DNA of 64,000 nt from Patescibacteria group bacterium UBA926 (GCA_002293685.1 DBDS01000002.1:31742-95741), one strand, 5' to 3'. Shown: positions 13,427-54,365, numbered from the stretch's first letter. Notes: generated by a model not told the origin, from the sequence alone. Numbers and translations: made by a program.

Positions 13427-14986
13427 TTACTCTACTAATTCCCCTCCAAATATTTTTAAAGCATCCGACACTACGACCGCAGTATCGGTAATTTTTTCTG
13501 AAACCGACAGATTTTTATCTATTACAGCTATAAACGCAACAGAACCACCCGCTTGTTTGCTAAGATAGTCGTTAATTAAAGTGCGCATTCGAGCGCTTTC
13601 GAGTTGCTCTTTATGAAATAAATATTTTACGGATACAGCCACGCGATTACCTTCAACTTTAGAAATCGGTGCATTTTTTAGTAAGGTGGCTAATGGACTA
13701 TTAAACTTTCGGACTTCTGCAATAAGCTCTGGCCACCAACCTTTTACCTGATCTTCCGTTAAGGCAACGTTAGAATTTTCGGAAACAGCTACTTCTTCTG
13801 ATTTTTGTTCAATTTCTAATTTTTCTTCGACAACTGTTACAGGTGATTCTATAACAACTTGGGCTTTGGAAACAACTGGCTTAGTGCTATCTGGTGTGGA
13901 ATTAGCGTTATCAATGTTCTTAGAAGCTTGTCCGCCCGAGCCAGACATATACAAAGCTGCCTCAATACTTGCTAACAGTAGAGGTAATTCTGGACTTAAA
14001 GCTTTTTCAATTTCTTTATAAGCTCTTAGGTATAATCGGATAATATGTAGAATTTGAGGTAATGCAAAAGCTTGGCCTAACGAATCGGTCCGCGTCTGTC
14101 CAGCCAAAGTTTGTTCCAACAATTCCTGTAACACTCCCAAAGTTTTTCTGGTAAAACTAGAAGCGTCAAAATTTAGTTCTGTCTGTTTGGCAAAAAATTC
14201 TGGCAACGCTGCGGTCTGACCTTTTGATATAAATAATAACAATTCTTCGATAGTGGCTCGTGATGTAGTGCCGAGTAGTAAGTGAATGTCGGATTCGCTA
14301 TGATCTTTTTCTAACACGGAGATCATAGACAGTTGTGATAAAGCATCACGCAACCCACCTTCGCTATTTTCTACAATAATTTCTAAGGCGCCCGCAGGTA
14401 ATTTTAATTTTTCTTGCTTCACAATACTTTCTAGAGTTTTTAAAATCTGCGGAGCGGTAATTTTTCGGAAATCAAACCTTTGAGTTCTAGAAATTATAGT
14501 TTCCGGAACTTTATCGATATCTGTAGTAGCTAAAATGAACAATGCATGAGCTGGCGGTTCTTCCAAAGTTTTTAGTAAAGCATTGAAAGCTGCTTTCGAA
14601 AGCATGTGAACCTCGTCAATGATAAAAACTTTGGTCTTGCCTTGACTTGGCCCAAAATTGATTCGTTCGATAAGTTCGCGAATGTTATCAACGCCAGTAT
14701 GTGATGCGGCATCTATCTCTACTACATCAAGAAATGTTCCGCGGCCAATTGCAGTACACACATCACATGTCCCACACGGGTCACCGTCTTTGACTTTCGG
14801 GCAATTTACGGCTTTGGCCAAAATCCGAGCGAGGGTAGTTTTTCCAACTCCCCGACTTCCGGTAAATAAATAGGCATGACCAACCCGCCCGAGCTTCACA
14901 GCTTGCGACAAAGCCTTAACAATTGATTCTTGCCCCACAACTTCGCTAAATTTTTGAGGACGGTAGGTTTGATAGTAAACAGCCAT
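13427..14986 (-). CDS. dnaX: DNA polymerase III subunit gamma/tau
   Basis: Walker A GSRGVGKTT, zinc-module cysteines CPKVKDGDPCGTCDVC and clamp-loader boxes. Confidence 0.9.
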   Translation of the reverse strand: MAVYYQTYRPQKFSEVVGQESIVKALSQAVKLGRVGHAYLFTGSRGVGKTTLARILAKAVNCPKVKDGDPCGTCDVCTAIGRGTFLDVVEIDAASHTGVDNIRELIERINFGPSQGKTKVFIIDEVHMLSKAAFNALLKTLEEPPAHALFILATTDIDKVPETIISRTQRFDFRKITAPQILKTLESIVKQEKLKLPAGALEIIVENSEGGLRDALSQLSMISVLEKDHSESDIHLLLGTTSRATIEELLLFISKGQTAALPEFFAKQTELNFDASSFTRKTLGVLQELLEQTLAGQTRTDSLGQAFALPQILHIIRLYLRAYKEIEKALSPELPLLLASIEAALYMSGSGGQASKNIDNANSTPDSTKPVVSKAQVVIESPVTVVEEKLEIEQKSEEVAVSENSNVALTEDQVKGWWPELIAEVRKFNSPLATLLKNAPISKVEGNRVAVSVKYLFHKEQLESARMRTLINDYLSKQAGGSVAFIAVIDKNLSVSEKITDTAVVVSDALKIFGGELVE

Positions 14987-15056: not shown

Positions 15057-15728
15057 TTATCGCTTGAAAACAAACATTTTGTAAGCCAAAAAATTCCAAA
15101 TTAAAGATAAGCCGGTAGCAAGAATTTTAGCCACATTTTTAACGCTATCCTCGTTAATAAAGCTAGATAAGGATGGCGCGAGAGCAGAAGAAGCCAAAGC
15201 GACAATACCGCTGTTGATAAGCAAACCGATAAAGCTGACCACCATAAAACTTATAAATTGCTGAGCAACTTTACTATCATCTCCATTATTACTGGTTAAC
15301 TTTAATCCAAAGGCGTACCACACTAAAATTTCTGAAACTATGAAGACTACTAAGATAAACAGATAGTAGTTCTCCATCGCACCCTGAATACTACCTACTA
15401 TTACGAGTAAGAACGCAAATAATCCCAAACCGCCTACAATCATCAATCGGATGGCATTAGCCAGTGGGGAAATATTAAAGCTGTGGAATGTCCATGCGCG
15501 GTTCCAGAAATAACTTTGAATCATCGCCGCGGTAAAACCAATCATATTAAGAGCTCCCAATGTAACCCCTTCAGTAACACCAAAAGATTTAGTGATGTAG
15601 TTCAATATAATAAAATCCAGCGCGGTGTTGATTGTGCCAATGGCAGCAAAACGCAGGACTTGCAAAATGACTGGCCTAGCTTCTAATAATCGAGCTAAAC
15701 GCTGGTTATATAACGATAATGTAGCCAC
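15057..15728 (-). CDS. GtrA-family polysaccharide-synthesis membrane protein
   Basis: GtrA-like N-terminus (VLRFAAIGTINTALDFIILNY) and multiple TM helices. Confidence 0.6.
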   Translation of the reverse strand: MATLSLYNQRLARLLEARPVILQVLRFAAIGTINTALDFIILNYITKSFGVTEGVTLGALNMIGFTAAMIQSYFWNRAWTFHSFNISPLANAIRLMIVGGLGLFAFLLVIVGSIQGAMENYYLFILVVFIVSEILVWYAFGLKLTSNNGDDSKVAQQFISFMVVSFIGLLINSGIVALASSALAPSLSSFINEDSVKNVAKILATGLSLIWNFLAYKMFVFKR

Positions 15729-15764: not shown

Positions 15765-16406
15765 TTAAAACTCTTCGGTTTCTGGTTGCATCATTGGCTC
15801 GGCTTCCATATCCTGATCGCTGTCCATTGCACCGTTACCGATTGAACCATCGAATTCCGTGTCACCACTAGCACCGTGCTTAATTACGTTTTCGACAGCT
15901 GCCCATTGACTATCCCCTTCTTGAGGAACGACTATAGTGACTTCATCTCCCGCCGAAGCTTTAAAATAGGTTAACGATGCCAACAATACTCTGTAGGTTT
16001 TTCCATCTGCAATTACTTTGTAGTCGCCGTTTTCATCTTGCAATAAAATACCAATAATTTTCTTGCGGTCAACCGGACCAATTTGTTTATATATAAATGA
16101 ACCGTCGTCGGCGATTGTTAGTTTTAACACATCACCCTCGACTAACTTTGACTTTGAAGCGTAGTTGGCAGGAACAGGATATTGTTTGTTGTCTGGACCA
16201 ATCATATTTTGACCATCGAACACACCTTCGATGATTTTTCCACCATCAAGCACAGATAAACCGGTCGCTTTTTCGGCAAAATTAGTTGAACTACGTGAAG
16301 TCGAACCACCTGCCATTTCACGCAATAAGTGTTTCGCTGATTGAATATTCTTTTCGGCCGCCTCAATCATTTGCACAATTAAAGCGAAATTTGCATTTTT
16401 ATCCAT
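15765..16406 (-). CDS. hypothetical protein with acidic C-terminus
   Basis: ORF-track ORF with no recognisable motifs and a C-terminal D/E-rich tail. Lies in the accessory segment. Confidence 0.4.
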   Translation of the reverse strand: MDKNANFALIVQMIEAAEKNIQSAKHLLREMAGGSTSRSSTNFAEKATGLSVLDGGKIIEGVFDGQNMIGPDNKQYPVPANYASKSKLVEGDVLKLTIADDGSFIYKQIGPVDRKKIIGILLQDENGDYKVIADGKTYRVLLASLTYFKASAGDEVTIVVPQEGDSQWAAVENVIKHGASGDTEFDGSIGNGAMDSDQDMEAEPMMQPETEEF

Positions 16407-16516
16407 GAATTATTTGTTTTGTTTTTGTATATTTGAATGCCAAGTTTTTGTTTCTAAACAGACGTGAAAACTTTGTTTAATTATAACACGGTTCTCCAAA
16501 AAGGCAAGTAAATATT

Positions 16517-16831
16517 TTATTTATCCATAACTTGTTTTGCTGATTTGAGGGAATTCATCTCATGCTCAATAGCCTCTTCTATTTTGAAATGAATATTCGG
16601 AACTTCCGCGGTAAGCTGAGCGATCCCTTCATCCATTTTTTCAGCGTCATCAAGTGCAGTTAGCTGTTCGAATCTAGCTAATTGCTCAGCATTAAGATTA
16701 CTCGTTAAAGTATCAATCATGACCTGATTGAGGTGCTCGGTGATTTGAGCTATGACTTGATACTTCTCATCTTCTCCTAAAGATTCCAAGCCAAGCTCAG
16801 TAATTAATTTGTCTATAGATTCTTTTAACAT
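16517..16831 (-). CDS. hypothetical acidic helical protein
   Basis: ORF with a 5-nt gap downstream of the 1144-aa gene. Confidence 0.4.
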   Translation of the reverse strand: MLKESIDKLITELGLESLGEDEKYQVIAQITEHLNQVMIDTLTSNLNAEQLARFEQLTALDDAEKMDEGIAQLTAEVPNIHFKIEEAIEHEMNSLKSAKQVMDK

Positions 16832-16835
16832 GGCT

Positions 16836-19800
16836 TTACTTCTTAATAAAGTTTTCTACCTTGGTCAATAACTCACGCGCTTTCTTCTTATCATCATCTG
16901 AGCCTGACATCAATGATTCGATGCTATCAATAGAAGACTCTACCACGTACTGAATAATATTTTCTGATGTTATGTTTTTAGAAATATTCGGCAGTTTGTC
17001 CTTACTCTCTAAAAAATCTTCAGCTTTCATTTTGTTTCGCTTGAAATATGATTCGATATGTTTAATCCTTGTAGTGGGAAGTTTTTTCCTAAATTGCTTT
17101 TGAATTTTTTCTAATCTCTCCTTATTTTCAACTTCATCATTATCAATTACCTCTTTTGAGGATCCATGATCTAAATTAATTCCCATTTGTTTAATCACAA
17201 CATCTGCGAACCTTTCAGCAACAACTTGGTCATTAGGTTTTTTTGATTCACGAAGCACAGACATACTTGAGAACCTATTCTTTACAGCATCAGAAACCTT
17301 ACTCAATCGTTCAGGGTCTGCCCTGCGAAGCCCTTCCTCCAATTGTCTATTGAGATATGCTTCATCAGGTTTAGTTAAATCTAAATCCAATTCCCCAGGT
17401 TTCGTTTGGTATTTGTCTCCTAAAACAATTTCCACATTAGACGGAAGGCCATCTGGGAATTTCCGATTGATAATATCAAGCAAAATCTCCTCAGCTGGTA
17501 CGCGTTTAGATTCGGGTATCTTAGAAAAGGCGTCATTAGTCATTAAGTCTGGGTATTTAGCAAATTGTTCTTCACGATTCATTGGTCCTAGTACAGCAGT
17601 TCTTTCTTTGTGAGATTCGCGAAGTAATCCAATAATTTCAGCAGGTTTCAATGCATTATAAGAAATTCCCCCTTTAGAAAGTTTAATTAGCTGTAAAGTT
17701 ACTTCATCTCTCTCAACAAAGTCAGTTTCTCCAATATTTATAGCCTTTAAGCCTTTGGTAATTCTTTGCAGTTCGTTTGGCTTAATTGAGTCAAAGGCCT
17801 TCTTCACTCGACTTAGTGCACGATATTGATCTTCTGGAGATAATTGATCAAAAACCCTCTGATCAGAAAGCTTAACTTTAAAATCGTATTTTGATTCAAA
17901 CTCCAAAAACTTTTTGGCGACCTCGTTCTCGATCACTCTACCAACCAGACTTTCAATATCACTCCAGTCAACTCTTGAAAATACAGGAATCCCCACAATT
18001 ACAGAATCTCTATCTGAAACCAAAGTTCTTTCCTTATCAGAAGACATATTCAAAACTATCTTGGTGTTTATATTTAGAGTCCTTAGTTTTTTTGCTGACT
18101 TAATGAACTCATCAACGATGTATTGAATCTTATCAATTTGCTTTTCTAATTTTTTATTTCCATCAATATGAACTTCCGCATTAATTCCCGCGGCGATCAG
18201 TGCTTGATTAAATTCTGCTTCAGCCTGAGATAATTTTTCTTTTTCAGGTTCGGCTTTTTCCTTTTCCTCTCCGTCTGTTTCAGTATCTTGAGATAAAGCT
18301 TTCCCCCAATCAAAATCAACAGGAGCATCTGGAGAATCAGGTCCTTTAGGCTTATCACCGGTTCGAGGGGTAGAAGCTAGAGGTGTAGTGACCGGAGGAT
18401 TTTCAGGTCCTCTATTACCAGGAGTACCGCCTAGTGCAACCCCACCGATTACAGTACTATTCTCGTTGGTATTATTTTCACGACCTGGCCTGGAAGCAGC
18501 TTCTGATGCGAGTACAGCAGCAGCTACTACAGCAAGAGCTGCATAGTCATCTGCGGTAAGCTCAACATCTTCATAAGCTTTAGACTCAGTGATGGTTTCG
18601 GTTATAAACTGTTCCATCGCAACTGGATCAAAGTCCAACATTTTAGCTTTTGTTGCTTCAGAAAGAAAGTGCGCCTTGGTTTGAATTAACTCGCCAATGT
18701 TCTTTATTCCAGCTTCGGTTAACTTGGCGTTCTCGCCTATCACACCAGCTTTTTCTAAAGCCTCTTCAACATACCCACTAGAAACTGTAAATTCAGCTGA
18801 ATTTACATCGATTCCCTGCCTTAGCGCCTCTTTAACTAGAGTATCTTCAGCATAAACTAATTGCTCAATGGTTACCCCGCTCGCAAAATTAGCGTTTACG
18901 CCTTTATGTTCTTCGATAAAAGTGTGAATTGCATCACGGGCACCACCGGTTAAGCCGCGATGATCCAGTTTATTAGTATATGACTCTGACAAATTTGCTC
19001 GGGTTTCAACAATTGGAGTTGATTCTTGAATAACAGCACCGCTATTCCATAACTTATCTGCACTTTCAACTAACGCCGCCCCTACTGTCGAACCAAGTGC
19101 ACCATAAGCCGCGCCGCGTAAAATAGCTTTGCCAACAATTGCTTTCTTGTTCCTAAAAACATTTCCAAAATCACGCTTGTAATTAATATTGCGCTCAATT
19201 CGGTTCAATAAAACTTGAACTTCTTTACCGCGATCCGATTTAGCGTAGTTATTCTTAATGTCCTGTGATGCGCCTAATAAGTATTCAATTTTATCTTTCT
19301 CTGAATAATTCGCAAATTTTCCATCCTTTTTTGCTAACTCAGTTTGCATGTTAAGTCTTGCCGCATCTAAAGTTTGCTTAATCTGATTATATTCCTCTGG
19401 TGACGCATCGAATTTTTGGTTTTTATGAAGTTCTTCAAGCTTGGTCAGCAAAGCTGCTTTCTCAAGATAATCAGCTTGGTTAAACTTCTCCATAATTTCC
19501 TTCGACTGATACGCTTTCGACTCTCGGAACAAAGCTTTTCCACCTTCTAACAAACCACCAGCGGTGGCTCCAGCAGCGATAGCAAATGGAAGGTTCGCTC
19601 CAAAAGCTGCAACGTATCCGGCTTTGACCGCACCACGAACAGCTGCGCCTGCACCCATACCAACTAAGAATGAACTCAAACGTGGATGTTTTGCAGACCA
19701 ATCACCAACTCGATCTTTAAGTCTTCCAAAGAATCCTTGTTTTGTATTTTCGTCGAAAAGAACTGACCGAATTGCTTCAGCCTGAACAACACCGATTTGG

Positions 19801-20270
19801 CCCGTAGCAACTGCCTTTTCTATTTCTTTAGCTTGCTCATCCCGAGTTTCTTTGACGACATCTTCTGCTGTTTGAATCACTTCAACTTTGATTGCTTCTA
19901 CATCAACAGGTTTTTCCTGTTCAACTTTAACTTCGTTCTTGAGAGCTTCCGCGTTCAGTATTGCTAATTCGGCGTCGAGCTCAATCAACTCCTTTTTAGT
20001 TCTAATCTCTACTTTTCGTGTATTCACGTTCTCTTGCATCAACTCCTGCTGAGAACGAAGTTCATCGGCTTTACTGCGGTTTTTCTCTGCCCGCTGATTA
20101 TTACGAACAATCTTCCAATGTGGTTGGACTTTTTCAGAATTGTTTCCACCTTTTTTGTTTTGGTTTCCAGAATTCTGCTTTTTATTTGTATTTTTTTTAT
20201 CGGCGTTTTTCGCCCTTATGGGAGCGGCGATCTCATCTGGATTTTCAGAGGATCGTTCTCGATTTGCCAT
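16836..20270 (-). CDS. giant (1144 aa) K/E-rich coiled-coil protein with Gly/Ala-rich amphipathic (glycine-zipper-like) segments; function unknown
   Basis: Long uninterrupted ORF. Low-complexity N-terminus, heptad-like K/E stretches, segments FLVGMGAGAAVRGAVKAGYVAAFGANLPFAIAAGATAGG and AILRGAAYGALGSTVGAAL. Its own extended -10 promoter (TGGTATAAT) lies upstream. Confidence 0.6.
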   Translation of the reverse strand: MANRERSSENPDEIAAPIRAKNADKKNTNKKQNSGNQNKKGGNNSEKVQPHWKIVRNNQRAEKNRSKADELRSQQELMQENVNTRKVEIRTKKELIELDAELAILNAEALKNEVKVEQEKPVDVEAIKVEVIQTAEDVVKETRDEQAKEIEKAVATGQIGVVQAEAIRSVLFDENTKQGFFGRLKDRVGDWSAKHPRLSSFLVGMGAGAAVRGAVKAGYVAAFGANLPFAIAAGATAGGLLEGGKALFRESKAYQSKEIMEKFNQADYLEKAALLTKLEELHKNQKFDASPEEYNQIKQTLDAARLNMQTELAKKDGKFANYSEKDKIEYLLGASQDIKNNYAKSDRGKEVQVLLNRIERNINYKRDFGNVFRNKKAIVGKAILRGAAYGALGSTVGAALVESADKLWNSGAVIQESTPIVETRANLSESYTNKLDHRGLTGGARDAIHTFIEEHKGVNANFASGVTIEQLVYAEDTLVKEALRQGIDVNSAEFTVSSGYVEEALEKAGVIGENAKLTEAGIKNIGELIQTKAHFLSEATKAKMLDFDPVAMEQFITETITESKAYEDVELTADDYAALAVVAAAVLASEAASRPGRENNTNENSTVIGGVALGGTPGNRGPENPPVTTPLASTPRTGDKPKGPDSPDAPVDFDWGKALSQDTETDGEEKEKAEPEKEKLSQAEAEFNQALIAAGINAEVHIDGNKKLEKQIDKIQYIVDEFIKSAKKLRTLNINTKIVLNMSSDKERTLVSDRDSVIVGIPVFSRVDWSDIESLVGRVIENEVAKKFLEFESKYDFKVKLSDQRVFDQLSPEDQYRALSRVKKAFDSIKPNELQRITKGLKAINIGETDFVERDEVTLQLIKLSKGGISYNALKPAEIIGLLRESHKERTAVLGPMNREEQFAKYPDLMTNDAFSKIPESKRVPAEEILLDIINRKFPDGLPSNVEIVLGDKYQTKPGELDLDLTKPDEAYLNRQLEEGLRRADPERLSKVSDAVKNRFSSMSVLRESKKPNDQVVAERFADVVIKQMGINLDHGSSKEVIDNDEVENKERLEKIQKQFRKKLPTTRIKHIESYFKRNKMKAEDFLESKDKLPNISKNITSENIIQYVVESSIDSIESLMSGSDDDKKKARELLTKVENFIKK

Positions 20271-20327
20271 GTTTTTGTTTCAGTTTAAAGAAATTTTCTT
20301 AATAATATTATACCATAAATTGGTTTG

Positions 20328-20365
20328 TAAATAAAAAAGAGGGTCGAGATTATTAATCTCGACCC
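20328..20365 (-). terminator. rho-independent terminator after the Lpp-like gene
   Basis: gggtcgagattaataatctcgaccc hairpin followed by tcttttttat on the minus strand. Confidence 0.55.
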
Positions 20366-20392
20366 AACAAACTGCTTGAAGGTGCAGTAAAC

Positions 20393-21043
20393 CTAGTTAC
20401 GATCTCGAATTCGAGGTGTTAGCTCTATATCGATCGGAGTGACCGACACGTTGAGAGGCACATTGATCGACGGCGGCGCTGGCGGAACAACTGGCGCGGG
20501 TGCAACATGTGCCGGAGCCGGATACGCTGGTGGTGGAATAACCAAATACCCATTCGGGTAGTGTGGTGGAGCATGATGCCCAACGCCATTTCCGTTACCT
20601 ACGCCGCCATTTCGAGGGAAAAAATATCCCCCGATTATTGCAGCGACCAGCAATGCTCCTGCTAAGAAGAGCAGAAACCACCCGGCTGGTGAGAGAGTCC
20701 ACCAACTTTCGATAGCAGACACTCTGTTCTCCACGTGGTCAATACGGCCATTAGTATCGGCGAAAGCAGCGTTCACGTCCGCCGTATTCGCCTTGTTTGC
20801 CATCTGGCTTTTCAGGGTCGACGCGAGACCTTCGACCGAGTCCAAGCGCTTACGCGCTTCAACGTCGGTGCCGTTCATGTAGTATCTCTTCACCACAGTG
20901 GTCCGCTTAACTACCGGCTGAACTATTCGCGGCCGTTCTTGTTGGCAACCAACGTAGCAGCCGTCGGTTCCTGCAAAAGCAGTTTGCGACAGAGCGAAAA
21001 AAGAAACGACCATTACAACTATTACCGCAATATTCTTAAACAT
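20393..21043 (-). CDS. exported Lpp-like coiled-coil protein with C-terminal TM anchor and Pro-rich tail
   Basis: Signal peptide ending AFA|G. Heptad coiled coil resembling Braun lipoprotein repeats. One TM helix, then a PPAYPAPAHVAPAPVVPPAPP tail. Confidence 0.55.
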   Translation of the reverse strand: MFKNIAVIVVMVVSFFALSQTAFAGTDGCYVGCQQERPRIVQPVVKRTTVVKRYYMNGTDVEARKRLDSVEGLASTLKSQMANKANTADVNAAFADTNGRIDHVENRVSAIESWWTLSPAGWFLLFLAGALLVAAIIGGYFFPRNGGVGNGNGVGHHAPPHYPNGYLVIPPPAYPAPAHVAPAPVVPPAPPSINVPLNVSVTPIDIELTPRIRDRN

Positions 21044-21216
21044 ATTATCTTTCCTCCAAGAAGTTGTATTGTTTTAAATTCCGAGGTCATCACTGACCGC
21101 CATAATACCACCCATAAACACAGGGCAGCGCCACAACGGTCAGCTTGTGCATGACCTGTAGAAACCCACATTTACGGGCTTTTACAGGAAATTCACCATA
21201 TTTAATTTGACCTCGT

Positions 21217-21245
21217 AGTATACACTATTTTTGGTATTTTGTCAA
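21217..21245 (-). promoter_or_regulatory. sigma70-type promoter TTGACA-N17-TATACT for the Lpp-like gene (about 170-nt 5'UTR)
   Basis: On the minus strand: cTTGACAaaataccaaaaatagtgTATACTacg. Confidence 0.6.
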
Positions 21246-21261
21246 GGCCTGTCACAAATCC

Positions 21262-21294
21262 GGGCAAAAGAAAAAGGACCACTTTCGCAGTCCT
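21262..21294 (-). terminator. rho-independent terminator after the 21317-21946 gene
   Basis: aggactgcgaaagtggtcct hairpin followed by ttttcttttg on the minus strand. Confidence 0.5.
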
Positions 21295-21316
21295 GTTTTG
21301 TAACCCTTTGAAGCCT

Positions 21317-21946
21317 TTACGACTTCTCTGGGTTAATATGTAGGTTTATGACACCGCTTTCACGCTTGTCACGTGCCGACACAGACGAATATTCATCGTC
21401 ATCATCTCTGATGCCCAAAGGGTCACCGAGTTTAGAAGCATCAAACTCACCTTTATGTGAATCAGGTGCTTCTTCCTTTTCCGGCTCATCCCTGATCTCC
21501 CAATAAGCCTTCCCAAGTAGATACCCGCCTGGCAAGCCAATCATTCCTAGCAGGATAATGACGGCATACCACTGCTGTGACATTAACGGCATTGGCGTAT
21601 TCCACAAGCTGTAGCCGACCATAATACTCACCGAAATGAGAGCCGCCACGACCATGAGATACCATGCTACCTGAGCGAACCACAACAGGGACCGAGCCGA
21701 ATGATAGATCGCAGCCAGGGAAAGCAGTAACGCAGTCCCAACTGTACTGCTCAATAGGATGAAGTCCATCCTACGCCGGGTTGGCATATCCAAAAGGTAC
21801 ACCATCACCAGCATAAATGCTGCCACCCCAATGAAAAACACCATCGCATTTTTTAGGTTATACATAAACATTTCCTCCAAGAAATTTGATTTAAATAGTC
21901 GAAAAACTATTTGCGTAATAATACCACAAATAGTTCTTTTTGTCAA
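21317..21946 (-). CDS. hypothetical 4-TM membrane protein with acidic C-terminus. The true start is probably an internal Met near 21868.
   Basis: Four hydrophobic helices; a D/E-rich C-terminal tail. Confidence 0.5.
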   Translation of the reverse strand: MTKRTICGIITQIVFRLFKSNFLEEMFMYNLKNAMVFFIGVAAFMLVMVYLLDMPTRRRMDFILLSSTVGTALLLSLAAIYHSARSLLWFAQVAWYLMVVAALISVSIMVGYSLWNTPMPLMSQQWYAVIILLGMIGLPGGYLLGKAYWEIRDEPEKEEAPDSHKGEFDASKLGDPLGIRDDDDEYSSVSARDKRESGVINLHINPEKS

Positions 21947-21962
21947 TCAGGTTTTCGCTAGA

Positions 21963-24521
21963 CTACACCGACTTTTCAATACCACCAGGTCCTGCCGCCA
22001 TCATATCGGCAATCTGACTGGCTTCTAATATTTCTGCTTCGACTTCATTTCGAGGCCTACCAAATTTCAAACGAGATAACTGCCTAATAGCTTCGGCTGT
22101 TTGTCTCTGTTCAGCAGTTGCTTTGGGAAGTGGATAAGTTGCCATGTTAAACGGCTTGCTTGCTGTACCGTTAATCATTAATTTAACAAAAGCGTTGTAA
22201 CGGTCTACGTTAAGCAGATCGAACTCATTGAAAGTTGGCGCAAATTCTTTCGCCATAATTTCTGCATCTTCCACACCGATACGGAAACTGACCATACTTC
22301 CCGCATTTCCAAACACGGCGTCACGCAAATCACTACTCGCCGCACCGTGCGCACCCGCACCTTGTTGCAACTGTGCCAAAAATTGATGAGCGATAATTAA
22401 ATTAAGTTTGTATTTTCGCGCCTCGCTTAATATTGAAGAAAAAGCGTCCGTAATAAAGTTTTGAAATTCATCAACATACAAATAAAAGTCGCGGCGCTCG
22501 TCTTCAGGTTGATCGGCACGGCTTAACGCTGCCATCTGAATTTTAGACACAATAATCAAACCAAGTAGCTTAGCATTCATCTCCCCTACTTTACCTTTCG
22601 CTAAGTTCACAAGCAAGATTTTCCCACTGTCCATAACTTCTCTAAAATTGAAAGAACTCTTCGATTGACCGACAATATTTCTCATCATACTGTTCTCAAC
22701 GAAACGTCCAACTTTAGAAACCAAATAGCCAAGCATTTCAGATTTATGAAAATCAGAAGTCTTCGCCATTTCTTTTTCCCAGAATGCTTTAACAACAGGA
22801 TCATTAAGTTTTGAAACTTTGTACTTTTGAAATTCTGTGTCGGTGAAGATGCGAGGAATTTCTACTAAAGTTCCTGGATGTTGTTCATCTGCCATTAAAG
22901 TAAGCATGGCGTTGCGCATATTATGTTCGAACATTGGCCCGAGCATAGCCGGATCTGTCACTAACTTATAAAAGATAGAGATCATTTCTTGCACAGCGAA
23001 ATCTTTGTGCGAATCATGCGTAACTTCGAGCATATTCAAACCCATCGGACGTTCAGTGTCGAATGGATCGAACAAAATTACATCTTCCGCGCGGCTTTTT
23101 GGCACATGAGGAAGAACGTCTTCAATGAAGTCACCATGAGGATCGATAATACAAAGACCTTCTCCGTTCGCAATATCTTGCACGGCCATGTACTTCATCA
23201 CTTCAGTTTTACCTACACCAGTGCGTCCCAAAATATACATGTGGCGTCGCCTATCTTCGCGCGCCATATGCACTTTCGTTTCGATACCCCGATAAATATT
23301 TCTACCCAAAAGCAACCCTTCGGGAGCTAGATTAATTGGCGGAGGTGCTTTTTTCGATAATAGCCATTTGATGTTCGGCGTTTCGAGCAGCGGAGTTGGC
23401 AAGTGCCATAAACTAGTTAATTCTTCGGTGTTCAAAATCATCTTGCGACCATAACGTCTGTAAATTCTGAAGATATAGTCTTTGATAATTCGCTTTTTAT
23501 TGCGCTTCTTTATTCGGAAACCGTTAAAAGGCGGCATGTTATATTCCAAAAATGAAGAAGTTAAATTATGTAAATGGGCTTTCGCTGTGCCTGGTGTCTC
23601 GGAAGCTGTGATGATTCTAATATTAGTGAAGAATCCAGGACGACTAGCTTTTTCTTCAAAACGCTTCACCATTTCTTGCTGCATCGGGGTTAAATTAATC
23701 GCCGAGTAACGACCAGACAAATCATTGCGTTGCTGCATCTGTTCTTGAGAAGGCTTCATTCCTCCTACTACGCTGTCTTTTAAACCACCCCCGACTTCCT
23801 TAACAAACCGACCTGTTGCAGACTTCGCGACAATGTTTGGATTTTTTCCTTGTTGAATTTCCAACGCCATATGACGCGGCTTCATTTGCCAATGAACTCC
23901 TGCGGGGTATAAAATAACTTGAATTGCAGCGCCGTCTGTTTCGGACAATTTAGACATCGCGTTAGTAAGTGCATTCAAGGGATCGGTCTCCATATTCTTG
24001 TAAGTGCGGAATGGAAACATGTAGGGCTTGTTCAGTTGAAGCTCTACTGCTTCCATCTCGCCTTTTTTTGGAAATGGATTATAACCTTTGACTACTTCGA
24101 TAAACGCGTGCGGATATTGCGCTTGTATTTGCTTCTCAATTAAATCCTGAAGATGCTTGGGGCAATTGATATAAAAAGAAATTTTCTTGTTTGTGCAGGC
24201 GATTTCAAAACTAATATAATCCTTGGGCTGCCAAAACCAATTTTCGTGACTGATTCCCGACAAAGTTGTGTATAGTTGTTCACCCACGCCAATCATCTGC
24301 TTCTTTTCCTCATCCCTCATATCCCGAGAATTATCTTCACTATTTTCTTTTGGCATTTGAATTTCCAAAATTACCCAGTTCTTAGTGCGAGGTAAAATAA
24401 CCTTGCTGTAGTACCAGTGCCTGTGCGCGTAATAAGCTAGCAACGAAAAAAACACTACAAGTAGCACAATCAAAAGTAGTGTTGCGATAACTATCGTACT
24501 AATGTCTAATCCAAAAGGCAT
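21963..24521 (-). CDS. VirB4/TrbE/TraC-like FtsK-HerA superfamily ATPase (type IV secretion / conjugation-type)
   Basis: N-terminal TM helix, about 420-aa N-domain, Walker A LGRTGVGKT, IIDPHGD, Walker B LYVDEF and the RK...AHQ arginine-finger/Q motif. Confidence 0.65.
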   Translation of the reverse strand: MPFGLDISTIVIATLLLIVLLVVFFSLLAYYAHRHWYYSKVILPRTKNWVILEIQMPKENSEDNSRDMRDEEKKQMIGVGEQLYTTLSGISHENWFWQPKDYISFEIACTNKKISFYINCPKHLQDLIEKQIQAQYPHAFIEVVKGYNPFPKKGEMEAVELQLNKPYMFPFRTYKNMETDPLNALTNAMSKLSETDGAAIQVILYPAGVHWQMKPRHMALEIQQGKNPNIVAKSATGRFVKEVGGGLKDSVVGGMKPSQEQMQQRNDLSGRYSAINLTPMQQEMVKRFEEKASRPGFFTNIRIITASETPGTAKAHLHNLTSSFLEYNMPPFNGFRIKKRNKKRIIKDYIFRIYRRYGRKMILNTEELTSLWHLPTPLLETPNIKWLLSKKAPPPINLAPEGLLLGRNIYRGIETKVHMAREDRRRHMYILGRTGVGKTEVMKYMAVQDIANGEGLCIIDPHGDFIEDVLPHVPKSRAEDVILFDPFDTERPMGLNMLEVTHDSHKDFAVQEMISIFYKLVTDPAMLGPMFEHNMRNAMLTLMADEQHPGTLVEIPRIFTDTEFQKYKVSKLNDPVVKAFWEKEMAKTSDFHKSEMLGYLVSKVGRFVENSMMRNIVGQSKSSFNFREVMDSGKILLVNLAKGKVGEMNAKLLGLIIVSKIQMAALSRADQPEDERRDFYLYVDEFQNFITDAFSSILSEARKYKLNLIIAHQFLAQLQQGAGAHGAASSDLRDAVFGNAGSMVSFRIGVEDAEIMAKEFAPTFNEFDLLNVDRYNAFVKLMINGTASKPFNMATYPLPKATAEQRQTAEAIRQLSRLKFGRPRNEVEAEILEASQIADMMAAGPGGIEKSV

Positions 24522-24557
24522 TTTTTGTTGGTTTTGTTTTTGTTAAAAAATCGAGGT

Positions 24558-24941
24558 CTATAGCATGCCATTTAGGCGGTCTCGCGCTTCTTGTTCGGTT
24601 GGTTTCTCTTCAATTAAATTTGCTAAGTCCATGAGCTCACTGGCATCAGCAGCTGATTCTAATTCACTGGATGAAGCATAAACTTTTTCTCGTGCTAGTT
24701 CATGATGGCGGTCATTCAAAGTATGAGGCTCAATTCCTTCAAATTCATGTGATACAGGAGGTTGTTCTGAAGACTCCACTGATATTTCATCATCAGATTC
24801 TTCTTGAGCTGCAGTTTGAGTTTCTGGTGATTGTGTTTCTATATTATCCGCACCCACGACTTCTTGTGTAGGAATAACTTCAGGAGTATCGGGAATTTGG
24901 TCTGGGGAAAATTCTATTTTTGGCTTTATTTCTTCATTCAT
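24558..24941 (-). CDS. hypothetical highly acidic protein
   Basis: ORF immediately upstream of the ATPase gene; E/D/S/Q-rich. Confidence 0.4.
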   Translation of the reverse strand: MNEEIKPKIEFSPDQIPDTPEVIPTQEVVGADNIETQSPETQTAAQEESDDEISVESSEQPPVSHEFEGIEPHTLNDRHHELAREKVYASSSELESAADASELMDLANLIEEKPTEQEARDRLNGML

Positions 24942-25024
24942 ACTGAACTAATTATACCACAAAACGCTTTATAGTGCATAAACATTCCGTTATATATTGC
25001 GGGCTCTGTCGTCCCCGTTTACCA

Positions 25025-25132
25025 TAGGTTCAGGTTTGCACACTCGAGCTGTTGAACTACGCCCTCCTAAATTTCTACGAAATTTTGGCGGGCTGGGTTG
25101 CAAAGGCTCTCGTTTAGCAAACCTGAACCTAT
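25025..25132. repeat. MITE-like element with a perfect 16-bp TIR
   Basis: ataggttcaggtttgc ... gcaaacctgaacctat flanking 76 bp. Confidence 0.6.
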
Positions 25133-25200
25133 TAACCACCCATCATTCAGCGGGTTGTACGCTGAAACAAAAACCCGCACAAAGCGGGGTTGTAAAATAA

Positions 25201-25323
25201 AAGAAGTCAGATTTTTAGGCTAGTCCGCGAAGGAATCTGCGGCTACTTCGAGCCGTAGTGAAAGCTACGGTGAGAAGTAACGCAAAGATTCCGACAAAGG
25301 AATAGTCAAAAATCTGACTTCTT
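25201..25323. repeat. MITE-like element with a perfect 16-bp TIR enclosing a family-2 hairpin core
   Basis: aagaagtcagattttt ... aaaaatctgacttctt; internal gagccgtag-tgaaag-ctacggtgag. Confidence 0.6.
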
Positions 25324-25326
25324 CAC

Positions 25327-26604
25327 CTACTTCTGATAGTCGTGCATTGTGAGCTGTGCCTCTACTTGTTTGATACTTTCAATAACAACAGCAACAACAA
25401 TCAACAATCCAGCACCACCGAAAGTCATAGCCTGAGTTCCTGTCCAAGACTGAACAATAAACGGTAATACAGCAATTAGACCTAAGAACAAAGAGCCTGG
25501 TAAAGTAATGCGGTTCAATACTTTGTATAAGTAATCGGCAGTCATTCGACCTGGACGGATACCAGGAACAAAACCACCGCTGCGTTGCATGTTTTCAGAT
25601 ACTTCATCAGGGTTGATAACAATATTTGTGTAGAAGAAAGTAAACATTACAACCAGTACGAAGTAAGCTACACCGTACCAAATTCCTTGGTTATTGGTAA
25701 ATTCAATTGCTTTCTGAGCCCATTCAGCAACCAAAGGAGTTTTTGCATTTACAAAGAACTGCGCAATTATGGCTGGGAATAACAATAAGGAAATTGCAAA
25801 AATAATTGGAATTACACCGGCTTGGTTCAGGCGAAGTGGTAAATGTGAACTAACTCCGCCAACCTGCCTGTCCCCTTGCATACGCTTAGCATAAGTTACC
25901 GGAACATTACGCTGAGCTTCCGTCACCAGAACAACTCCGATAATTACCAATAATCCAGCAATCGCGAAACCAATCAAAGTTGGTAGCTGACTCGGATCAT
26001 ACAATTCAATGAATGAGCCGATTGAAGTTGGGATTTGAGCAACAATACCTGCGAAAATGACCAAGGAAATACCGTTACCAATTCCATATTCAGAAATAAT
26101 TTCACCAATCCACATAACAAGCATCGTACCTGCAGTCACAGCCAATAGAGTTAAGAACCATTGGAAAGGACTAAATACACCAAGCAATTCTGCACCACCC
26201 TGGCTTTGTAATAAGCGGATAGTTCCAAAACCAGATAGAATCGCTAAAGGAATAGTTAAGAAACGAGTATATTGGTTGATCTTCTGACGACCAGCTTCTC
26301 CATTCTCTTTCTGTAATTCTTTTAGAGCAGGAATAATCATTGTTAGCAACTGCATAATGATCGACGCGGTAATATAGGGACCGACACCAAGAAGTGCAAT
26401 TGAGAAGTTACTTAGACCACCACCAGAAAAGATGTTTAGTAAACTGAGGAACTGATTGCCTTCAAAGAAAGAGCGAAGCCCTTCGACACTGATTCCAGGA
26501 ATTGGGATATGAGCTAAAACACGAGTCATTAACAACAAAATCAAAACCATGAAGATTTTCTTCCGAAGGTCTTTAGTTTTCCAAATTAAGCTGAGTTTAT
26601 TCAT
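25327..26604 (-). CDS. secY: preprotein translocase subunit SecY
   Basis: Ten-TM SecY sequence; lies directly downstream of rplO. Confidence 0.95.
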   Translation of the reverse strand: MNKLSLIWKTKDLRKKIFMVLILLLMTRVLAHIPIPGISVEGLRSFFEGNQFLSLLNIFSGGGLSNFSIALLGVGPYITASIIMQLLTMIIPALKELQKENGEAGRQKINQYTRFLTIPLAILSGFGTIRLLQSQGGAELLGVFSPFQWFLTLLAVTAGTMLVMWIGEIISEYGIGNGISLVIFAGIVAQIPTSIGSFIELYDPSQLPTLIGFAIAGLLVIIGVVLVTEAQRNVPVTYAKRMQGDRQVGGVSSHLPLRLNQAGVIPIIFAISLLLFPAIIAQFFVNAKTPLVAEWAQKAIEFTNNQGIWYGVAYFVLVVMFTFFYTNIVINPDEVSENMQRSGGFVPGIRPGRMTADYLYKVLNRITLPGSLFLGLIAVLPFIVQSWTGTQAMTFGGAGLLIVVAVVIESIKQVEAQLTMHDYQK

Positions 26605-38866: not shown

Positions 38867-40048
38867 TTATTTGTTGATTTTAACAACAACACCTGCACCT
38901 ACAGTTCGGCCACCTTCACGGATAGCGAACTTACCTTTTTCTTCCAAAGCGATCGGAGTGATCAACTTTACGTCGATGGTAACGGTGTCACCAGGCATAA
39001 CCATTTCTTGGCCTTCTGGCAAGATTACTTCACCAGTCACGTCGGTTGTACGAACGTAGAACTGTGGCTTGTAACCCTTGAAGAATGGAGTGTGACGTCC
39101 ACCTTCTTCTTTGGTCAAGATGTAAACTTCAGCAGAGAACTCAGTGTGAGGAGTGATAGAACCAGGCTTAGCCAAAACTTGGCCGCGCTCAACTTCTTCT
39201 TTCTTAACACCACGGAGCAATAGACCAGCGTTGTCACCAGCCATACCCTTGTCGAGCTGCTTGTTGAACATTTCAACACCAGTTACAACGGTCTTTGAAG
39301 TAGGTTTGATACCAACAATTTCAACTTCTTCGTTGATATTGATAACACCACGTTCGATACGACCTGTAACTACAGTACCGCGACCTTCAATTGTGAAGAT
39401 ATCTTCGATAGGCATTAAGAAAGGCTTATCGGTTTCGCGGGTTGGTTCAGGGATGAAAGTATCCAATGCTTCTACAAGCTTAAGGATAGTTTCTTCGTTT
39501 GCAGCATCTCCTTCGAGAGCTTTCAACGCAGAACCACGGATGATAGGAGTTTCAGCTCCTGGGAATTCGTACTTGCTTAGAAGATCACGAATTTCTTCTT
39601 CCACAAGATCCAAAAGTTCTGGATCGGAAACTTGGTCTACCTTGTTCATGTAAACAACGATAGAAGGTACACCTACCTGACGAGCGAGCAAGATGTGTTC
39701 GCGAGTCTGAGGCATAGGACCGTCTGCAGCTGATACTACAAGAATCGCACCATCCATTTGAGCAGCACCGGTAATCATGTTTTTGATGTAGTCGGCGTGA
39801 CCTGGACAGTCAACGTGAGCGTAGTGACGCTTGTCGGATTCGTATTCGCTGTGTGAGGTATTAATAGTAATACCACGAGCTTTTTCTTCTGGCGCGTTGT
39901 CGATTTGGTCGTAAGCCTTAGCTTTTGCCTTACCAGACTTCGCAAGCACAGTAGTGATAGCAGCGGTCAAAGTTGTCTTACCATGGTCAACGTGGCCGAT
40001 GGTTCCCACATTCAAATGGGGCTTTGAGCGATCAAATTGTTCTGCCAT
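38867..40048 (-). CDS. tuf: elongation factor Tu
   Basis: [23 protein letters not shown] and NKVD G-domain motifs; full-length at 393 aa. Confidence 0.97.
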
Positions 40049-40856: not shown

Positions 40857-41249
40857 TTAAACCTTAAGTCGAATTAACTTACCTTTGCGTTTGACAATGT
40901 TTTTATAATCCCATTGGACTGTCTTTGATTCTTTCAACCAAAGTCTTAAATCCTTTAATTTGATTTCATCTGCTGAAGTGTAATTTTTTTGAGCAGCTTT
41001 AAAGCTTCCTTCTTTTTCTAGACCTTTGGCTTTAAAAGATTGCCCACTCCAGAATAATAATGTTACCCCAACTTTTCTTTTGGAATATCCAGCGACTGGA
41101 TTTCCTTCGATAAACCAAACTGGGCCGCCGTGCCAAAGTTTGCTTTCTGCTTTTTTGAGAGACTTATCGATTTCTTCGGCTAACTTTTTACTAATAGCTT
41201 TGTCTTCGCCTTTGAGCGCGTTGTTATATTTTTGAATGTCTTTGTGCAT
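40857..41249 (-). CDS. DUF1801 (YdhG/YdeI)-like protein
   Basis: Shape and motifs resemble DUF1801. The start is probably the internal Met (MHKDIQKY...), which avoids overlap with the upstream gene. Confidence 0.45.
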   Translation of the reverse strand: MHKDIQKYNNALKGEDKAISKKLAEEIDKSLKKAESKLWHGGPVWFIEGNPVAGYSKRKVGVTLLFWSGQSFKAKGLEKEGSFKAAQKNYTSADEIKLKDLRLWLKESKTVQWDYKNIVKRKGKLIRLKV

Positions 41250-41253
41250 AGAT

Positions 41254-41694
41254 TTAAATATCATCAAAGTTTGGTTTGATTTCTTCGTCGTCCATTGAGA
41301 CGCGCGGCGCTCCCAAACGACCATAATTTGGATCCATCACTTCTTCGCGCGGATCGTAATCAATTTCTTCAATGCGAGATGCTGCGGGATGAGACACAAA
41401 TAAATTCCGCGCTCTATCTTGAAGAATCTGGCCGATTGGCTCAGGCATTTTAATTGGCCCACCGATTGTCTCTAAATTACTCTCTCCCAAATCCATATTC
41501 TCACGGAGTTGAGCTTCAAGAATTTCGCGATTGATTTTTTCTCTATCAACTTCTTCGACCTGTGGTTTTTCGGAACCACTCATTTTTCGATACTCTGCCT
41601 CACCAAGAAAAACACCTTTCACTTCCCCTTCACCATTAACAATCACCACTTTCCCCTGCTGGCCTGCTAAATTGATTAAGTCTTTGAGATTCAT
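41254..41694 (-). CDS. hypothetical protein with Phd/YefM-like N-terminal fold and long acidic tail
   Basis: N-terminus LKDLINLAGQQGKVVIVNGEGEVKGVFLGEAEYRKM resembles antitoxin Phd/YefM. No partner toxin is evident. Confidence 0.4.
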   Translation of the reverse strand: MNLKDLINLAGQQGKVVIVNGEGEVKGVFLGEAEYRKMSGSEKPQVEEVDREKINREILEAQLRENMDLGESNLETIGGPIKMPEPIGQILQDRARNLFVSHPAASRIEEIDYDPREEVMDPNYGRLGAPRVSMDDEEIKPNFDDI

Positions 41695-41747
41695 AATCGC
41701 ATCTTAGCACAAAAAAACCACCTTTTAGAAGATGGTCTTATTATTTA

Positions 41748-42968: not shown

Positions 42969-43053
42969 AAATATTGCTCAATTAAGATAAGTATAACATA
43001 AAACCGCCCTTTCGAGCGGTTTTTTATTTAGGTCCAAGTTTACAAGCACAGAG

Positions 43054-43896
43054 TTATTTAGATTTTTTCTGTATAAAAGTAATCTGTTCTGAACCGTCTT
43101 TTCTATCTAATCGATATATTTCCAATAGACCGTTTTCTCTTATTTCCACTAACTCGCCGAAATTACTTGTCAGGTTAAAAACTTGTCCGTTTTCTGGTTT
43201 TGTAATTTTGGGAGGTGGAATTATACCATCCGTATGATCTATATATTTCGCCATCATATTTGTTAAATCTGTAACATCAGGGTCCTGCTGACGCTTGATT
43301 TGGGTTTGATCACTTTGCCATGTCATATATTTCATACAGCTGTCAGTGCCATCCTTATACCTATAATCCAAACCTGAAGACCATCCCATATATTGACAAA
43401 GTAGCTTATTTCTCCAAAAGACATTACCGAAAACTGATGTTTTATCAAAGAGCGCACCATCATTAAAGATGAAAAGTGCATCAGTGATGTGCCCAGAATC
43501 AGGGATATGGCCGTAAGTCCCTAAGGCTAACACACCATAATCGGGATCATTAATTGTACAAAAATTCATGTATCCAACATATATAAAACACTCTTCAGAC
43601 TCATCCCCTGGCACAATACTAAAATTTAAAGCTCCGTTACTTTCCCAATTAGCTATTGCTCTAGTAAAATGTATGTCCCAACCTCTGGAAGCGCTATCTA
43701 AAAGTGCAACCTGGCCATGAGCCCAATGCGGTGATGGTTCTTCATTGGCACTTGAGCTTAATGGTTGCGGTGCATAAGAACTGTAATAGCGAACGTAGAC
43801 TAAACCTGCGGCGGCAGTTATCACGAATAGAGCAAGTAATAAATTGATTCTGTGCTTGGAATTCCATTTTTTTAGGAACTTTGACATATTTTTCAT
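43054..43896 (-). CDS. hypothetical membrane-anchored protein
   Basis: N-terminal TM helix; no recognised motifs. Confidence 0.45.
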   Translation of the reverse strand: MKNMSKFLKKWNSKHRINLLLALFVITAAAGLVYVRYYSSYAPQPLSSSANEEPSPHWAHGQVALLDSASRGWDIHFTRAIANWESNGALNFSIVPGDESEECFIYVGYMNFCTINDPDYGVLALGTYGHIPDSGHITDALFIFNDGALFDKTSVFGNVFWRNKLLCQYMGWSSGLDYRYKDGTDSCMKYMTWQSDQTQIKRQQDPDVTDLTNMMAKYIDHTDGIIPPPKITKPENGQVFNLTSNFGELVEIRENGLLEIYRLDRKDGSEQITFIQKKSK

Positions 43897-54362: not shown

Positions 54363-54365
54363 AAA

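Follow-up and report, generated by a model that had tools for sequence, protein, structure and literature searches.

Gene content of the block

We analysed a stretch of 64,000 nt from Patescibacteria group bacterium UBA926 (GCA_002293685.1, DBDS01000002.1:31742-95741), below called the window, in which a ribosomal protein superoperon is followed by a block of seven genes (15765-24941) that includes the gene for a membrane-anchored ATPase of the type IV coupling protein (T4CP) family. A preliminary description had read this block of about 9 kb as an accessory segment resembling a type IV secretion system (T4SS), inserted where the operon would be expected to continue from secY to adk. The comparison with related species shows that the block is a conserved native cassette, consisting of an acidic open reading frame (ORF), the T4CP-family ATPase and a protein termed g213, which is split in this subclade by a hypervariable slot.

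All seven ORFs of the preliminary description are present and lie on the minus strand, like every gene of the window. The first is g127 (24558-24941), which encodes an acidic (pI 4.1) low-complexity protein of 127 aa, and the second encodes the ATPase (21963-24521, 852 aa). The accessory genes of the block are confined to the next four, i.e. g209TM, g216 (20393-21043), g1144 (16836-20270) and g104 (16517-16831), which encode a membrane protein, an accessory slot protein, a lineage-restricted protein of 1144 aa, and a small acidic helical protein, respectively. The gene for g213 (15765-16406), a protein with two β-barrels, forms the end of the cassette. g209TM had been given as 21317-21946 from a TTG codon; the start is probably the ATG at 21865, yielding a protein of 182 aa (21317-21865), because the TTG start overlaps the gene's own promoter.

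The superoperon had been said to run from S10 through secY. The genes for L2 through SecY were confirmed, and those from S10 to L23 were judged from ORF size and position only. As described, the operon stops at secY: a Pfam scan of the window ORFs of at least 90 aa gave no match for adk, map, infA, rpsM, rpsK, rpsD, rpoA or rplQ, with infA and rpmJ being small enough to escape such a scan. Neither an integrase nor a relaxase was matched in the same set of ORFs (for relaxases, NCBIfam was also used; oriT was not searched for), in line with the preliminary description. The same holds for its statement that the gene set is not a canonical T4SS, as no channel or pilus component was matched. The proposal of a T4SS-like module was not supported: VirB4, VirB3/PrgI, VirB6/PrgH, VirB8/PrgL and a VirB2-like pilin had no match to Pfam, NCBIfam or PHROG profiles in the block or in the other window ORFs, at a profile level that leaves room for very remote homologues.

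The cassette is native to Doudnabacteria

At least 539 stretches of the genome collection encode a relative of the ATPase. We fetched 80 loci with such a relative from different species and mapped the window proteins onto them. Across about 80 species of Candidatus Doudnabacteria the gene order is L15-secY-[small acidic ORF]-ATPase-[slot]-g213-GtrA-dnaX. In 46 of the 56 loci with at least 5 kb of upstream sequence, the genes for SecY and L15 precede that for the ATPase by 0.5-3.4 kb. A g213 homologue is encoded downstream of the ATPase in 52 of the 62 loci with at least 3 kb of downstream sequence, and in the remaining ten more than 8-10 kb of other genes follow the ATPase. After g213 come the genes for a GtrA-family membrane protein (45 of 47 loci; 15057-15728 in the window, identified by Pfam) and dnaX (47 of 47; 13427-14986, likewise). 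The most distant Doudnabacteria (ATPase 59-66% identical) have no secY upstream, yet the order ATPase-g213-GtrA-dnaX is kept. An identical ATPase is also encoded on more than 20 metagenome contigs, with unchanged gene order.

The pairing of the ATPase and g213 was found once outside Doudnabacteria, on the metagenome contig Ga0172370_10000440 (L092, 5156-8480). It encodes an 862-aa ATPase homologue that is 47% identical, and the gene for a g213 homologue lies directly next to it, 110 nt away. This g213 homologue has an N-terminal extension and no acidic tail, and GtrA and dnaX do not follow.

Because secY lies upstream of the ATPase in most loci and g213, GtrA and dnaX follow it, the ribosomal operon already ended at secY in the ancestor of a large Doudnabacteria clade, and this end is not a recent interruption. 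The claimed 9-kb insertion at a secY-adk junction is thus not borne out. In the relatives L036-L050, the spacer between secY and the ATPase extends to up to 3.4 kb and holds small conserved genes; read by eye, one product has the HExxH-like motif WHEIGHHFG and another an N-terminal DxD motif typical of HAD hydrolases, and none is adk-like.

Across species, the conservation of the ATPase (59-91% identity) and g213 (61-89%) resembles that of SecY (63-92%). To quantify selection, we compared the genes with those of a sister genome (L089, GCA_022842405.1), the housekeeping proteins of which are 97-100% identical to those of the window. The ATPase and g213 have amino acid identities of 99.3% and 99.5% and ratios of nonsynonymous to synonymous substitutions (dN/dS) of 0.018 and 0.023, respectively, showing that both are core genes under strong purifying selection with housekeeping-like constraint. 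The values for the other genes are 91% and 0.37 for g127, 87.5% and 0.22 for g216, and 82% and 0.31 for g1144; g209TM is only 51% identical and its dN/dS was not computable. The designation of the block as accessory is appropriate for the four middle genes, which are patchily distributed among relatives or missing from them, and not for the ATPase, g213 or the position of g127.

The codon usage of the ATPase and g213 is native, with normal GC contents at third codon positions (GC3) of 0.40 and 0.36 compared with a background of 0.334 ± 0.05. High values are confined to g209TM (0.505) and g216 (0.507; overall GC 0.53). The GC skew has no switch at the block. Both comparisons had been proposed as checks in the preliminary description. 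A search for att-like boundary repeats yielded only short repeats at chance level, and tRNA was the sole structured RNA matched in an Rfam scan, with a single gene at 61.6 kb and none flanking the block. The block has no recombinase family, no flanking repeats and no tRNA insertion site, and is not an integrative element.

The idea of a single accessory module for secretion, conjugation or the cell surface that makes up all 9 kb and was inserted into the superoperon does draw on real features: the operon ends at secY and a gene of a T4SS-associated family is next, the genes in the middle are accessory and many encode envelope proteins, and two of them have an atypical GC3. Nevertheless, we regard it as very improbable. 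The order secY-ATPase-g213-GtrA-dnaX is common to dozens of species, the ATPase and g213 are constrained like housekeeping genes, and the window lacks matches to T4SS components, relaxases and integrases as well as repeats and a tRNA gene at the borders of the block.

One observation on the ATPase gene stands apart. Its dS value in the comparison with the sister genome is 0.32, which is 4-18 times the values for secY, g213 and dnaX (0.02-0.09), while the protein is 99.3% identical. This suggests that the gene shares a divergent haplotype with the slot, either recombined or maintained for a long time.

By its sequence, the ATPase belongs to the coupling protein family

The ATPase has one transmembrane (TM) helix at about residues 9-33, as had been described, followed by a basic stretch, a DUF8128 N-domain (about 45-400) and a TrwB/VirD4-like P-loop domain with a helical insert (about 405-800). 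The Pfam families TrwB_AAD_bind (residues 417-729, 41.8 bits, cut-off 20.5), T4SS-DNA_transf (426-730, 31.4 bits, cut-off 20.1) and TraG-D_C (22.6 bits, cut-off 22) match the protein, and DUF87 does so too. PF26449 (DUF8128) was assigned to the N-terminal part by precomputed annotation; in our own scans, the N-domain alone had no Pfam match and its PDB sequence search gave nothing meaningful. In NCBIfam, TraD and VirD4-like families come first, all far below their equivalog cut-offs, and the matches to VirB4 (VirB4_plasma, 5e-4) and HerA models are confined to the Walker A region, where the weak CedD and CedB matches also lie. The Pfam profiles CagE_TrbE_VirB, AAA_10, P-loop_TraG and TraC, all of which match a VirB4-like control protein from Embleya, do not match the ATPase. 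The best PDB matches in a profile search were TrwB (2.8e-6) and DotL (2.9e-5). NCBI names members of the family [quoted passage not shown].

An AlphaFold2 (AF2) model of the ATPase (pLDDT 67) consists of a single long TM helix, an N-domain of the alpha/beta type and a RecA-like domain that carries a helical insert. In Foldseek searches, the C-terminal half matched TrwB, Cagβ and DotL with TMt values of about 0.5-0.55 (TrwB about 0.55). The Walker A (G432-K438) and Walker B (D684/E685) motifs are invariant. Judged by its sequence, the ATPase is thus a VirD4/TrwB-type coupling protein and not a VirB4. The earlier assignment as VirB4/TrbE-like is retained with regard to the T4SS-associated family and replaced, on the basis of the Pfam and PDB sequence matches, with regard to its member. 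The same gene order in relatives and a grouping of the ATPase with HerA or another non-T4SS clade had been named in the preliminary description as observations that would speak against it; the former was found for the core genes, and the latter was not found.

Like TrwB of R388, VirD4, TraD and DotL, the window ATPase has a P-loop nucleotide-binding domain with a helical insert and an N-terminal membrane anchor. Classical T4CPs have two TM helices and the window ATPase a single one; it also carries an additional DUF8128 domain of about 350 aa and has no relaxosome or T4SS partner in cis. No relaxosome or VirB4 T4SS genes were found linked to it within the 64 kb. A literature search found no paper mentioning DUF8128.

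Outside the candidate phyla radiation (CPR), full-length homologues are encoded by Bacillus phage G, other phages of the Bacillus group, phage D6E, Streptomyces and Embleya replicons, and haloarchaeal plasmids. The similarity to WP_331738717.1 of the Embleya plasmid NZ_CP108778 (25% identity over 81% of the query, E 2e-54) and to gp156 of phage G (23% over 89%; Foldseek match of the model in BFVD, E 2.5e-38) includes the N-domain, and these two proteins and gp23 of phage D6E have the same two-domain architecture as the window ATPase. In Embleya, the gene is preceded by genes for a PrgI-family protein and a VirB4/TraC-like ATPase and followed by genes for a replication-relaxation protein and an NlpC/P60 hydrolase. 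In phage G (L093, 89194-93336), the VirB4-like gp155 immediately precedes gp156, and gp23 of phage D6E adjoins a partition protein and an integrase. None of these genes accompanies the Doudnabacteria gene, which is a single-copy core gene paired with g213. Because homologues adjoin VirB4-like ATPases in the Embleya plasmid and in phage G, the family would act as the coupling protein of monoderm conjugation-type systems, and its member in Doudnabacteria would stand alone. In haloarchaeal plasmids (L094, a Haladaptatus plasmid) the match is split, a 355-aa upstream ORF aligning to the N-terminal region of the ATPase and an adjacent T4CP-like gene holding the rest.

The homologues in Bacillus phages and plasmids, a full-length match to phrog_5156 (1e-94) and a PADLOC match to mad8 of the MADS system (6e-15) raise the question of whether the gene is a domesticated or decaying phage, plasmid or defence gene, with island debris in the slot. 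This is extremely improbable, as no other phage, plasmid or defence genes are nearby, the mad8 match is limited to the generic P-loop domain, and stable synteny is combined with the very low dN/dS. A defence system as such was ruled out, given the generic nature of the mad8 match and the lack of partner genes.

Quite unlikely, too, is a housekeeping role of the ATPase and g213 as a DNA translocase in segregation, division or replication-linked DNA handling, analogous to FtsK/SpoIIIE and without a function in secretion or transfer. Class-wide conservation under strong purifying selection, the constant linkage to dnaX and the membership of the ATPase in the FtsK-HerA superfamily would all be compatible with such a role. 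However, the FtsK_SpoIIIE Pfam profile does not match the ATPase, and T4CP profiles cover its whole domain. Furthermore, in the one locus outside Doudnabacteria the linkage to dnaX is lost and that to g213 kept, and the homologues outside the CPR occur in conjugation-type or phage contexts.

g213 is a member of a widespread unannotated family

The partner g213 consists of an N-terminal helix, two small β-barrel domains resembling the oligonucleotide/oligosaccharide-binding (OB) fold, and a disordered acidic tail that ends with EEF. A word-indexed search retrieved more than 8000 homologues, and an exhaustive search gave 956 representative clusters at E ≤ 1e-10. Hence, g213 is not an orphan, which modifies the earlier view of a block of orphan genes, but belongs to a widespread, unannotated family: none of 44 diverse members scanned had a Pfam family or an SSB match. 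Within Doudnabacteria, residues 57-176 are almost invariant and the conserved residues include many aromatic and basic ones. The tail varies in length, and its acidic-hydrophobic tip is EEF or EEL in this group and ELEI or ELDI in other lineages.

A PDB sequence search with g213 gave nothing meaningful. The AF2 model (pLDDT 73, core about 85-92) comprises the N-terminal helix and the two small β-barrels. Its Foldseek matches were weak (best E 2.8e-3), and all were OB-fold nucleic-acid binders, i.e. RNase R, RNase II, the two-OB SSB of D. radiodurans, EF-P, aIF1A, RsgA and RecO. The likeness to bacterial SSB is one of architecture alone: β-barrel domain(s), a linker that is disordered and varies in length, and a short acidic tip at the C-terminus with a hydrophobic end. 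Differences are the extra N-terminal helix of g213 and the lack of a tail in some family members. From the weak fold matches and the SSB-like architecture, we infer that g213 is OB-like. At the sequence level, g213 was rejected as an SSB, the hhalign probability against a manually entered E. coli SSB sequence being 0.2%.

A positionally conserved acidic ORF precedes the ATPase

In all 73 relatives with upstream sequence, the start of the ATPase gene is preceded by an acidic ORF whose end lies no more than about 180 nt away, and mostly no more than 55 nt. The encoded proteins have pI values of about 4.1-6.3 and lengths of about 80-210 aa, mostly 110-140 aa. Only position, size and charge are conserved, and sequence similarity is detectable among close relatives alone. 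An assignment to a single family was rejected, as phmmer clustering and iterated HMMs failed to join the 74 sequences, which fell into 46 clusters. A homologue of g127 itself was found in a single close relative among the 80 loci (L007), and the separately fetched sister genome has an orthologue. Small acidic proteins encoded beside T4CPs are often adaptors or regulators, e.g. CagZ with Cagβ, and the PDB entry 8dol of that pair was among the Foldseek matches of the ATPase. It is possible that g127 is a partner of the ATPase.

The slot between the ATPase and g213 is hypervariable

In species with an ATPase that is less than 75% identical, 102-1964 nt (median 839) separate the ATPase from g213, compared with 4.1-9.9 kb, or more than 10 kb, in closer relatives and 5.6 kb in the window. 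Clustering of 353 ORFs from slots and secY-ATPase spacers resulted in 197 clusters, 154 of which were singletons, and six larger slot representatives had no Pfam family. TM segments were present in 62 of the 133 slot ORFs of close relatives, including tandem proteins with 8-10 such segments. Even in the closest other species (L007, ATPase 91% identical), the slot genes are unrelated to those of the window.

The features reported for the slot proteins were largely reproduced. The 4-TM protein, g209TM, has four hydrophobic segments, and its homologues are restricted to L011, L013 and the sister genome. The exported coiled-coil protein, g216, begins with a signal-like N-terminus, contains a coiled coil and a TM segment, and has a tail rich in Gly and Pro; it has no homologue in the 80 related loci, an orthologue in the sister genome, and 32% identity to a positional analogue in L091. 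The 1144-aa coiled-coil/Gly-zipper protein, g1144, consists of a K/E/N-rich N-terminus, coiled coils, three Gly/Ala-rich hydrophobic segments, a G/N/P-rich linker and a C-terminal domain. It has only 14 homologues among 5.8 billion proteins and no Pfam, NCBIfam, PHROG, PADLOC or PDB sequence match. A g104-like gene is always next after a g1144-like gene, and the pair is found in L011, L013, L022, L033, L091 and the sister genome; g104 has a sub-threshold match to DUF5663 (21.5 bits, cut-off 23.7).

A sliding nucleotide comparison with the sister genome revealed two hyper-divergent islands against a background of ~93-100% (about 98% in the flanks). The first is g209TM, with 63-66% nucleotide identity, and the second comprises the last ~400 codons of g1144, with 58-73%. 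At the protein level, residues 1-750 of g1144 are about 95-100% identical, residues 760-1000 are 60-72% identical, and residues 1000-1120 are 17-35% identical, so that the hypervariable C-terminal part extends over residues ~760-1144 (16836-17993). The slot proteins, especially g209TM and the C-terminus of g1144, have the appearance of surface determinants that are subject to diversifying selection or exchanged as cassettes.

In 32 species with short slots (L029-L084; e.g. L029, 13040-13489), a conserved helical protein of ~147 aa is encoded between the ATPase and g213. It has 39 members and no Pfam family, is usually located 90-900 nt upstream of g213, and is absent from the window. A relationship of the g104 family to this protein was tested by hhalign and rejected.

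Comparison with known systems

A survey of Patescibacteria (Quinonero-Coronel et al. 2025, PMC12102498) reports 5,713 VirD4-like T4CP homologues in 2,918 genomes, 148 of them near virB4, and already suggests exaptation of the orphan homologues. The window ATPase is like these orphans in being chromosomal, from the CPR, not beside virB4, and without a relaxase. The survey gives counts only, and the parts of it considered here make no mention of the DUF8128 N-domain, a g213 partner, an upstream acidic ORF, a link to secY or dnaX, or a variable slot; Doudnabacteria are nowhere named in the main text. The ATPase family and the orphan status of T4CPs in the CPR have thus been published, and the constant pairing with g213, the positionally conserved acidic ORF and the hypervariable slot appear to be new, not being described in the searchable literature.

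Thermus TdtA (PMC5365140) and the archaeal Ced ATPases are membrane-associated hexameric motors of the FtsK-HerA type that move DNA without a full T4SS. TdtA is encoded on an excising integrative and conjugative element with an integrase, 47-bp repeats and a tRNA target (PMC5365140), all of which are absent at the window block. The likeness to TdtA and Ced is a functional analogy only, no significant full-length similarity having been shown. A review (PMC12857230) describes T4CPs that work with non-T4SS machines, which is a functional precedent only.

Alternatively, a chromosomal Patescibacteria T4SS of the VirB4 type, with its genes elsewhere in the genome, could use the ATPase as its substrate receptor, in which case the ATPase would recruit proteins, possibly g127 or slot products, instead of DNA, with g213 as an adaptor or chaperone. 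Family membership, the pairing of homologues with VirB4, and the frequent adaptor or regulator role of small acidic T4CP neighbours are compatible with this possibility. In addition, T4CP genes frequently lie far from virB4, and most T4SS clusters of Patescibacteria have no relaxase (PMC12102498). We consider this role unlikely. The window contains no T4SS genes, conservation at the level of SecY is unusual for T4CPs, and several slot proteins carry signal or TM segments of their own and would use Sec. Moreover, the tightly conserved partner g213 has β-barrels, the weak fold matches of which are all nucleic-acid-binding OB folds.

Promoter-like sites, terminators and the secY-g127 spacer

Each gene of the block had been predicted to have its own promoter and terminator. 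The best promoter-like sites precede g127, g209TM, g216, g1144 and g213, and terminator-like hairpins follow secY, g209TM and g216, all on the minus strand, so the prediction applies to a subset of the genes. The totals are not above shuffled expectation (40 promoter-like sites compared with 30.7 ± 5.2, and 10 terminators compared with 12.1 expected). The genes for g127 and the ATPase (36 nt apart) and those for g1144 and g104 (4 nt apart) look like pairs.

An extended -10 element, TGTGGTATAAT (24951-24961), is located ~10 nt 5′ of the start codon of g127, and an alignment showed that TTTTGTGGTATAATTAG at this element is identical in the sister genome. The site before g209TM (21918-21946) is TTGACA-17-TATTAT with TG, with 11 of 12 matches, and that before g213 (16480-16507) is TTGCCT-16-TATAAT with TG. 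The site scan also identified promoter-like sites of g216 (21217-21245) and g1144 (20302-20331) and terminator-like hairpins after g209TM (21275-21294) and g216 (20341-20365). The hairpin after secY (25174-25188) consists of CCCGCTTTGTGCGGG followed by a T run.

This secY terminator is flanked by two very stable long hairpins in the secY-g127 spacer (24942-25326, minus strand), each with a perfect outer stem of 16 nt and neither with an Rfam match. Their folding energies are -57 kcal/mol (25196-25328, z -9.4) and -55.7 kcal/mol (25019-25137, z -8.3). The sister genome has neither of them and a spacer that is ~180 nt shorter, and in L007 the first hairpin is shortened. They look like variable inserted hairpin elements or processing sites.

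Other features of the window

Farther upstream than the genes for L2 through L15 and SecY lie tuf, fusA, rpsG and rpsL. Downstream of g213, GtrA and dnaX are followed by genes for a 541-aa orphan, an HtrA-like protease, RuvX, GalT, and enzymes of glycolysis and the pentose phosphate pathway. A second site of lineage-specific genes within a classical translation operon was observed between tuf (38867-40048) and fusA (44000-46123). It contains four orphan or weakly annotated ORFs (40857-43896) of 280 aa, 406 aa (weak BNR repeats), 146 aa, and 155 aa (a weak DUF1801 match). A carotenoid-type cluster (52441-58201) encodes a UbiA prenyltransferase, a polyprenyl synthetase, a phytoene/squalene synthase, a phytoene-desaturase-like amine oxidase, a 366-aa orphan and TspO, and a P-type cation ATPase (49742-52390) comes after it. 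Such a cluster is unusual in a CPR organism of such reduced metabolism.

Interpretation and implications

In the interpretation that we favour, with a probability only slightly better than even (about 0.55), the block is a native, lineage-wide cassette of g127, a T4CP-family motor with a DUF8128 domain, and g213, combined with a hypervariable slot, and the ATPase is an exapted orphan T4CP motor. It would form a motor of the hexamer type, anchored by its single TM helix and with both domains in the cytoplasm, and, driven by ATP, would feed a polymer, most likely DNA, to or from a membrane channel with its genes elsewhere. Candidates for the channel would be a distant VirB4 T4SS, a competence channel, or another structure. 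g213 might be a nucleic-acid-binding partner that binds the substrate and docks through its acidic tip, and g127 a fast-evolving acidic regulator or adaptor. The products of the slot genes would be surface or membrane proteins that are subject to diversifying selection or often replaced by recombination, and they may or may not work with the motor.

Several points weigh against this interpretation. A role as a DNA-translocating motor is proposed because of the ATPase family and the OB-like partner, and we infer that DNA is the substrate, in which direction it is moved and what the partners do. Genes for a VirB4 T4SS, FtsK, SSB or ComEC may lie elsewhere in the genome. The link between the ATPase and g213 outside Doudnabacteria is based on a single locus, as a metagenome scan with a distant g213 homologue yielded L092 alone. 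g213 has no sequence relation to SSB and no significant fold match, and the AF2 models of both proteins are of moderate confidence. In the Foldseek search with the full-length ATPase model, the top match was TrwK/VirB4 (E 5.6e-12), but with a TM score of 0.28 and an rmsd of about 19-20 Å; the N-domain could be similar to the N-terminal domain of VirB4. Lastly, a T4CP homologue in a cultured Saccharibacterium, a possible orthologue of the window ATPase, is not essential and may have been exapted (PMC12102498).

A bolder proposal, which we rate as rather unlikely, is that the ATPase, g213 and the upstream acidic ORF constitute an undescribed, CPR-wide device for nucleic-acid translocation, in which a T4CP-derived motor and an SSB-like OB adaptor would operate independently of VirB4. 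The slot would then contribute strain-specific surface parts, i.e. the 4-TM protein and the C-terminal domain of g1144, which would confer specificity for partners or hosts or be targets of phage or host pressure.

Members of the CPR/Patescibacteria rely on other cells, and little is known of how they exchange DNA and proteins with these cells. Orphan T4CP genes number in the thousands in Patescibacteria genomes and have been assigned neither a function nor a partner. For an orphan T4CP, the locus provides a concrete and testable context: its partner is constant and belongs to a large unannotated family, the upstream acidic ORF is constant too, and conservation matches that of housekeeping genes. 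A break of the ribosomal operon after secY, which is easily misread, can be ancestral in a lineage and need not signal an insertion. The slot is a defined hotspot of recombination or diversification for envelope proteins of Doudnabacteria, and could serve to mark strains and to supply candidates for host interaction.

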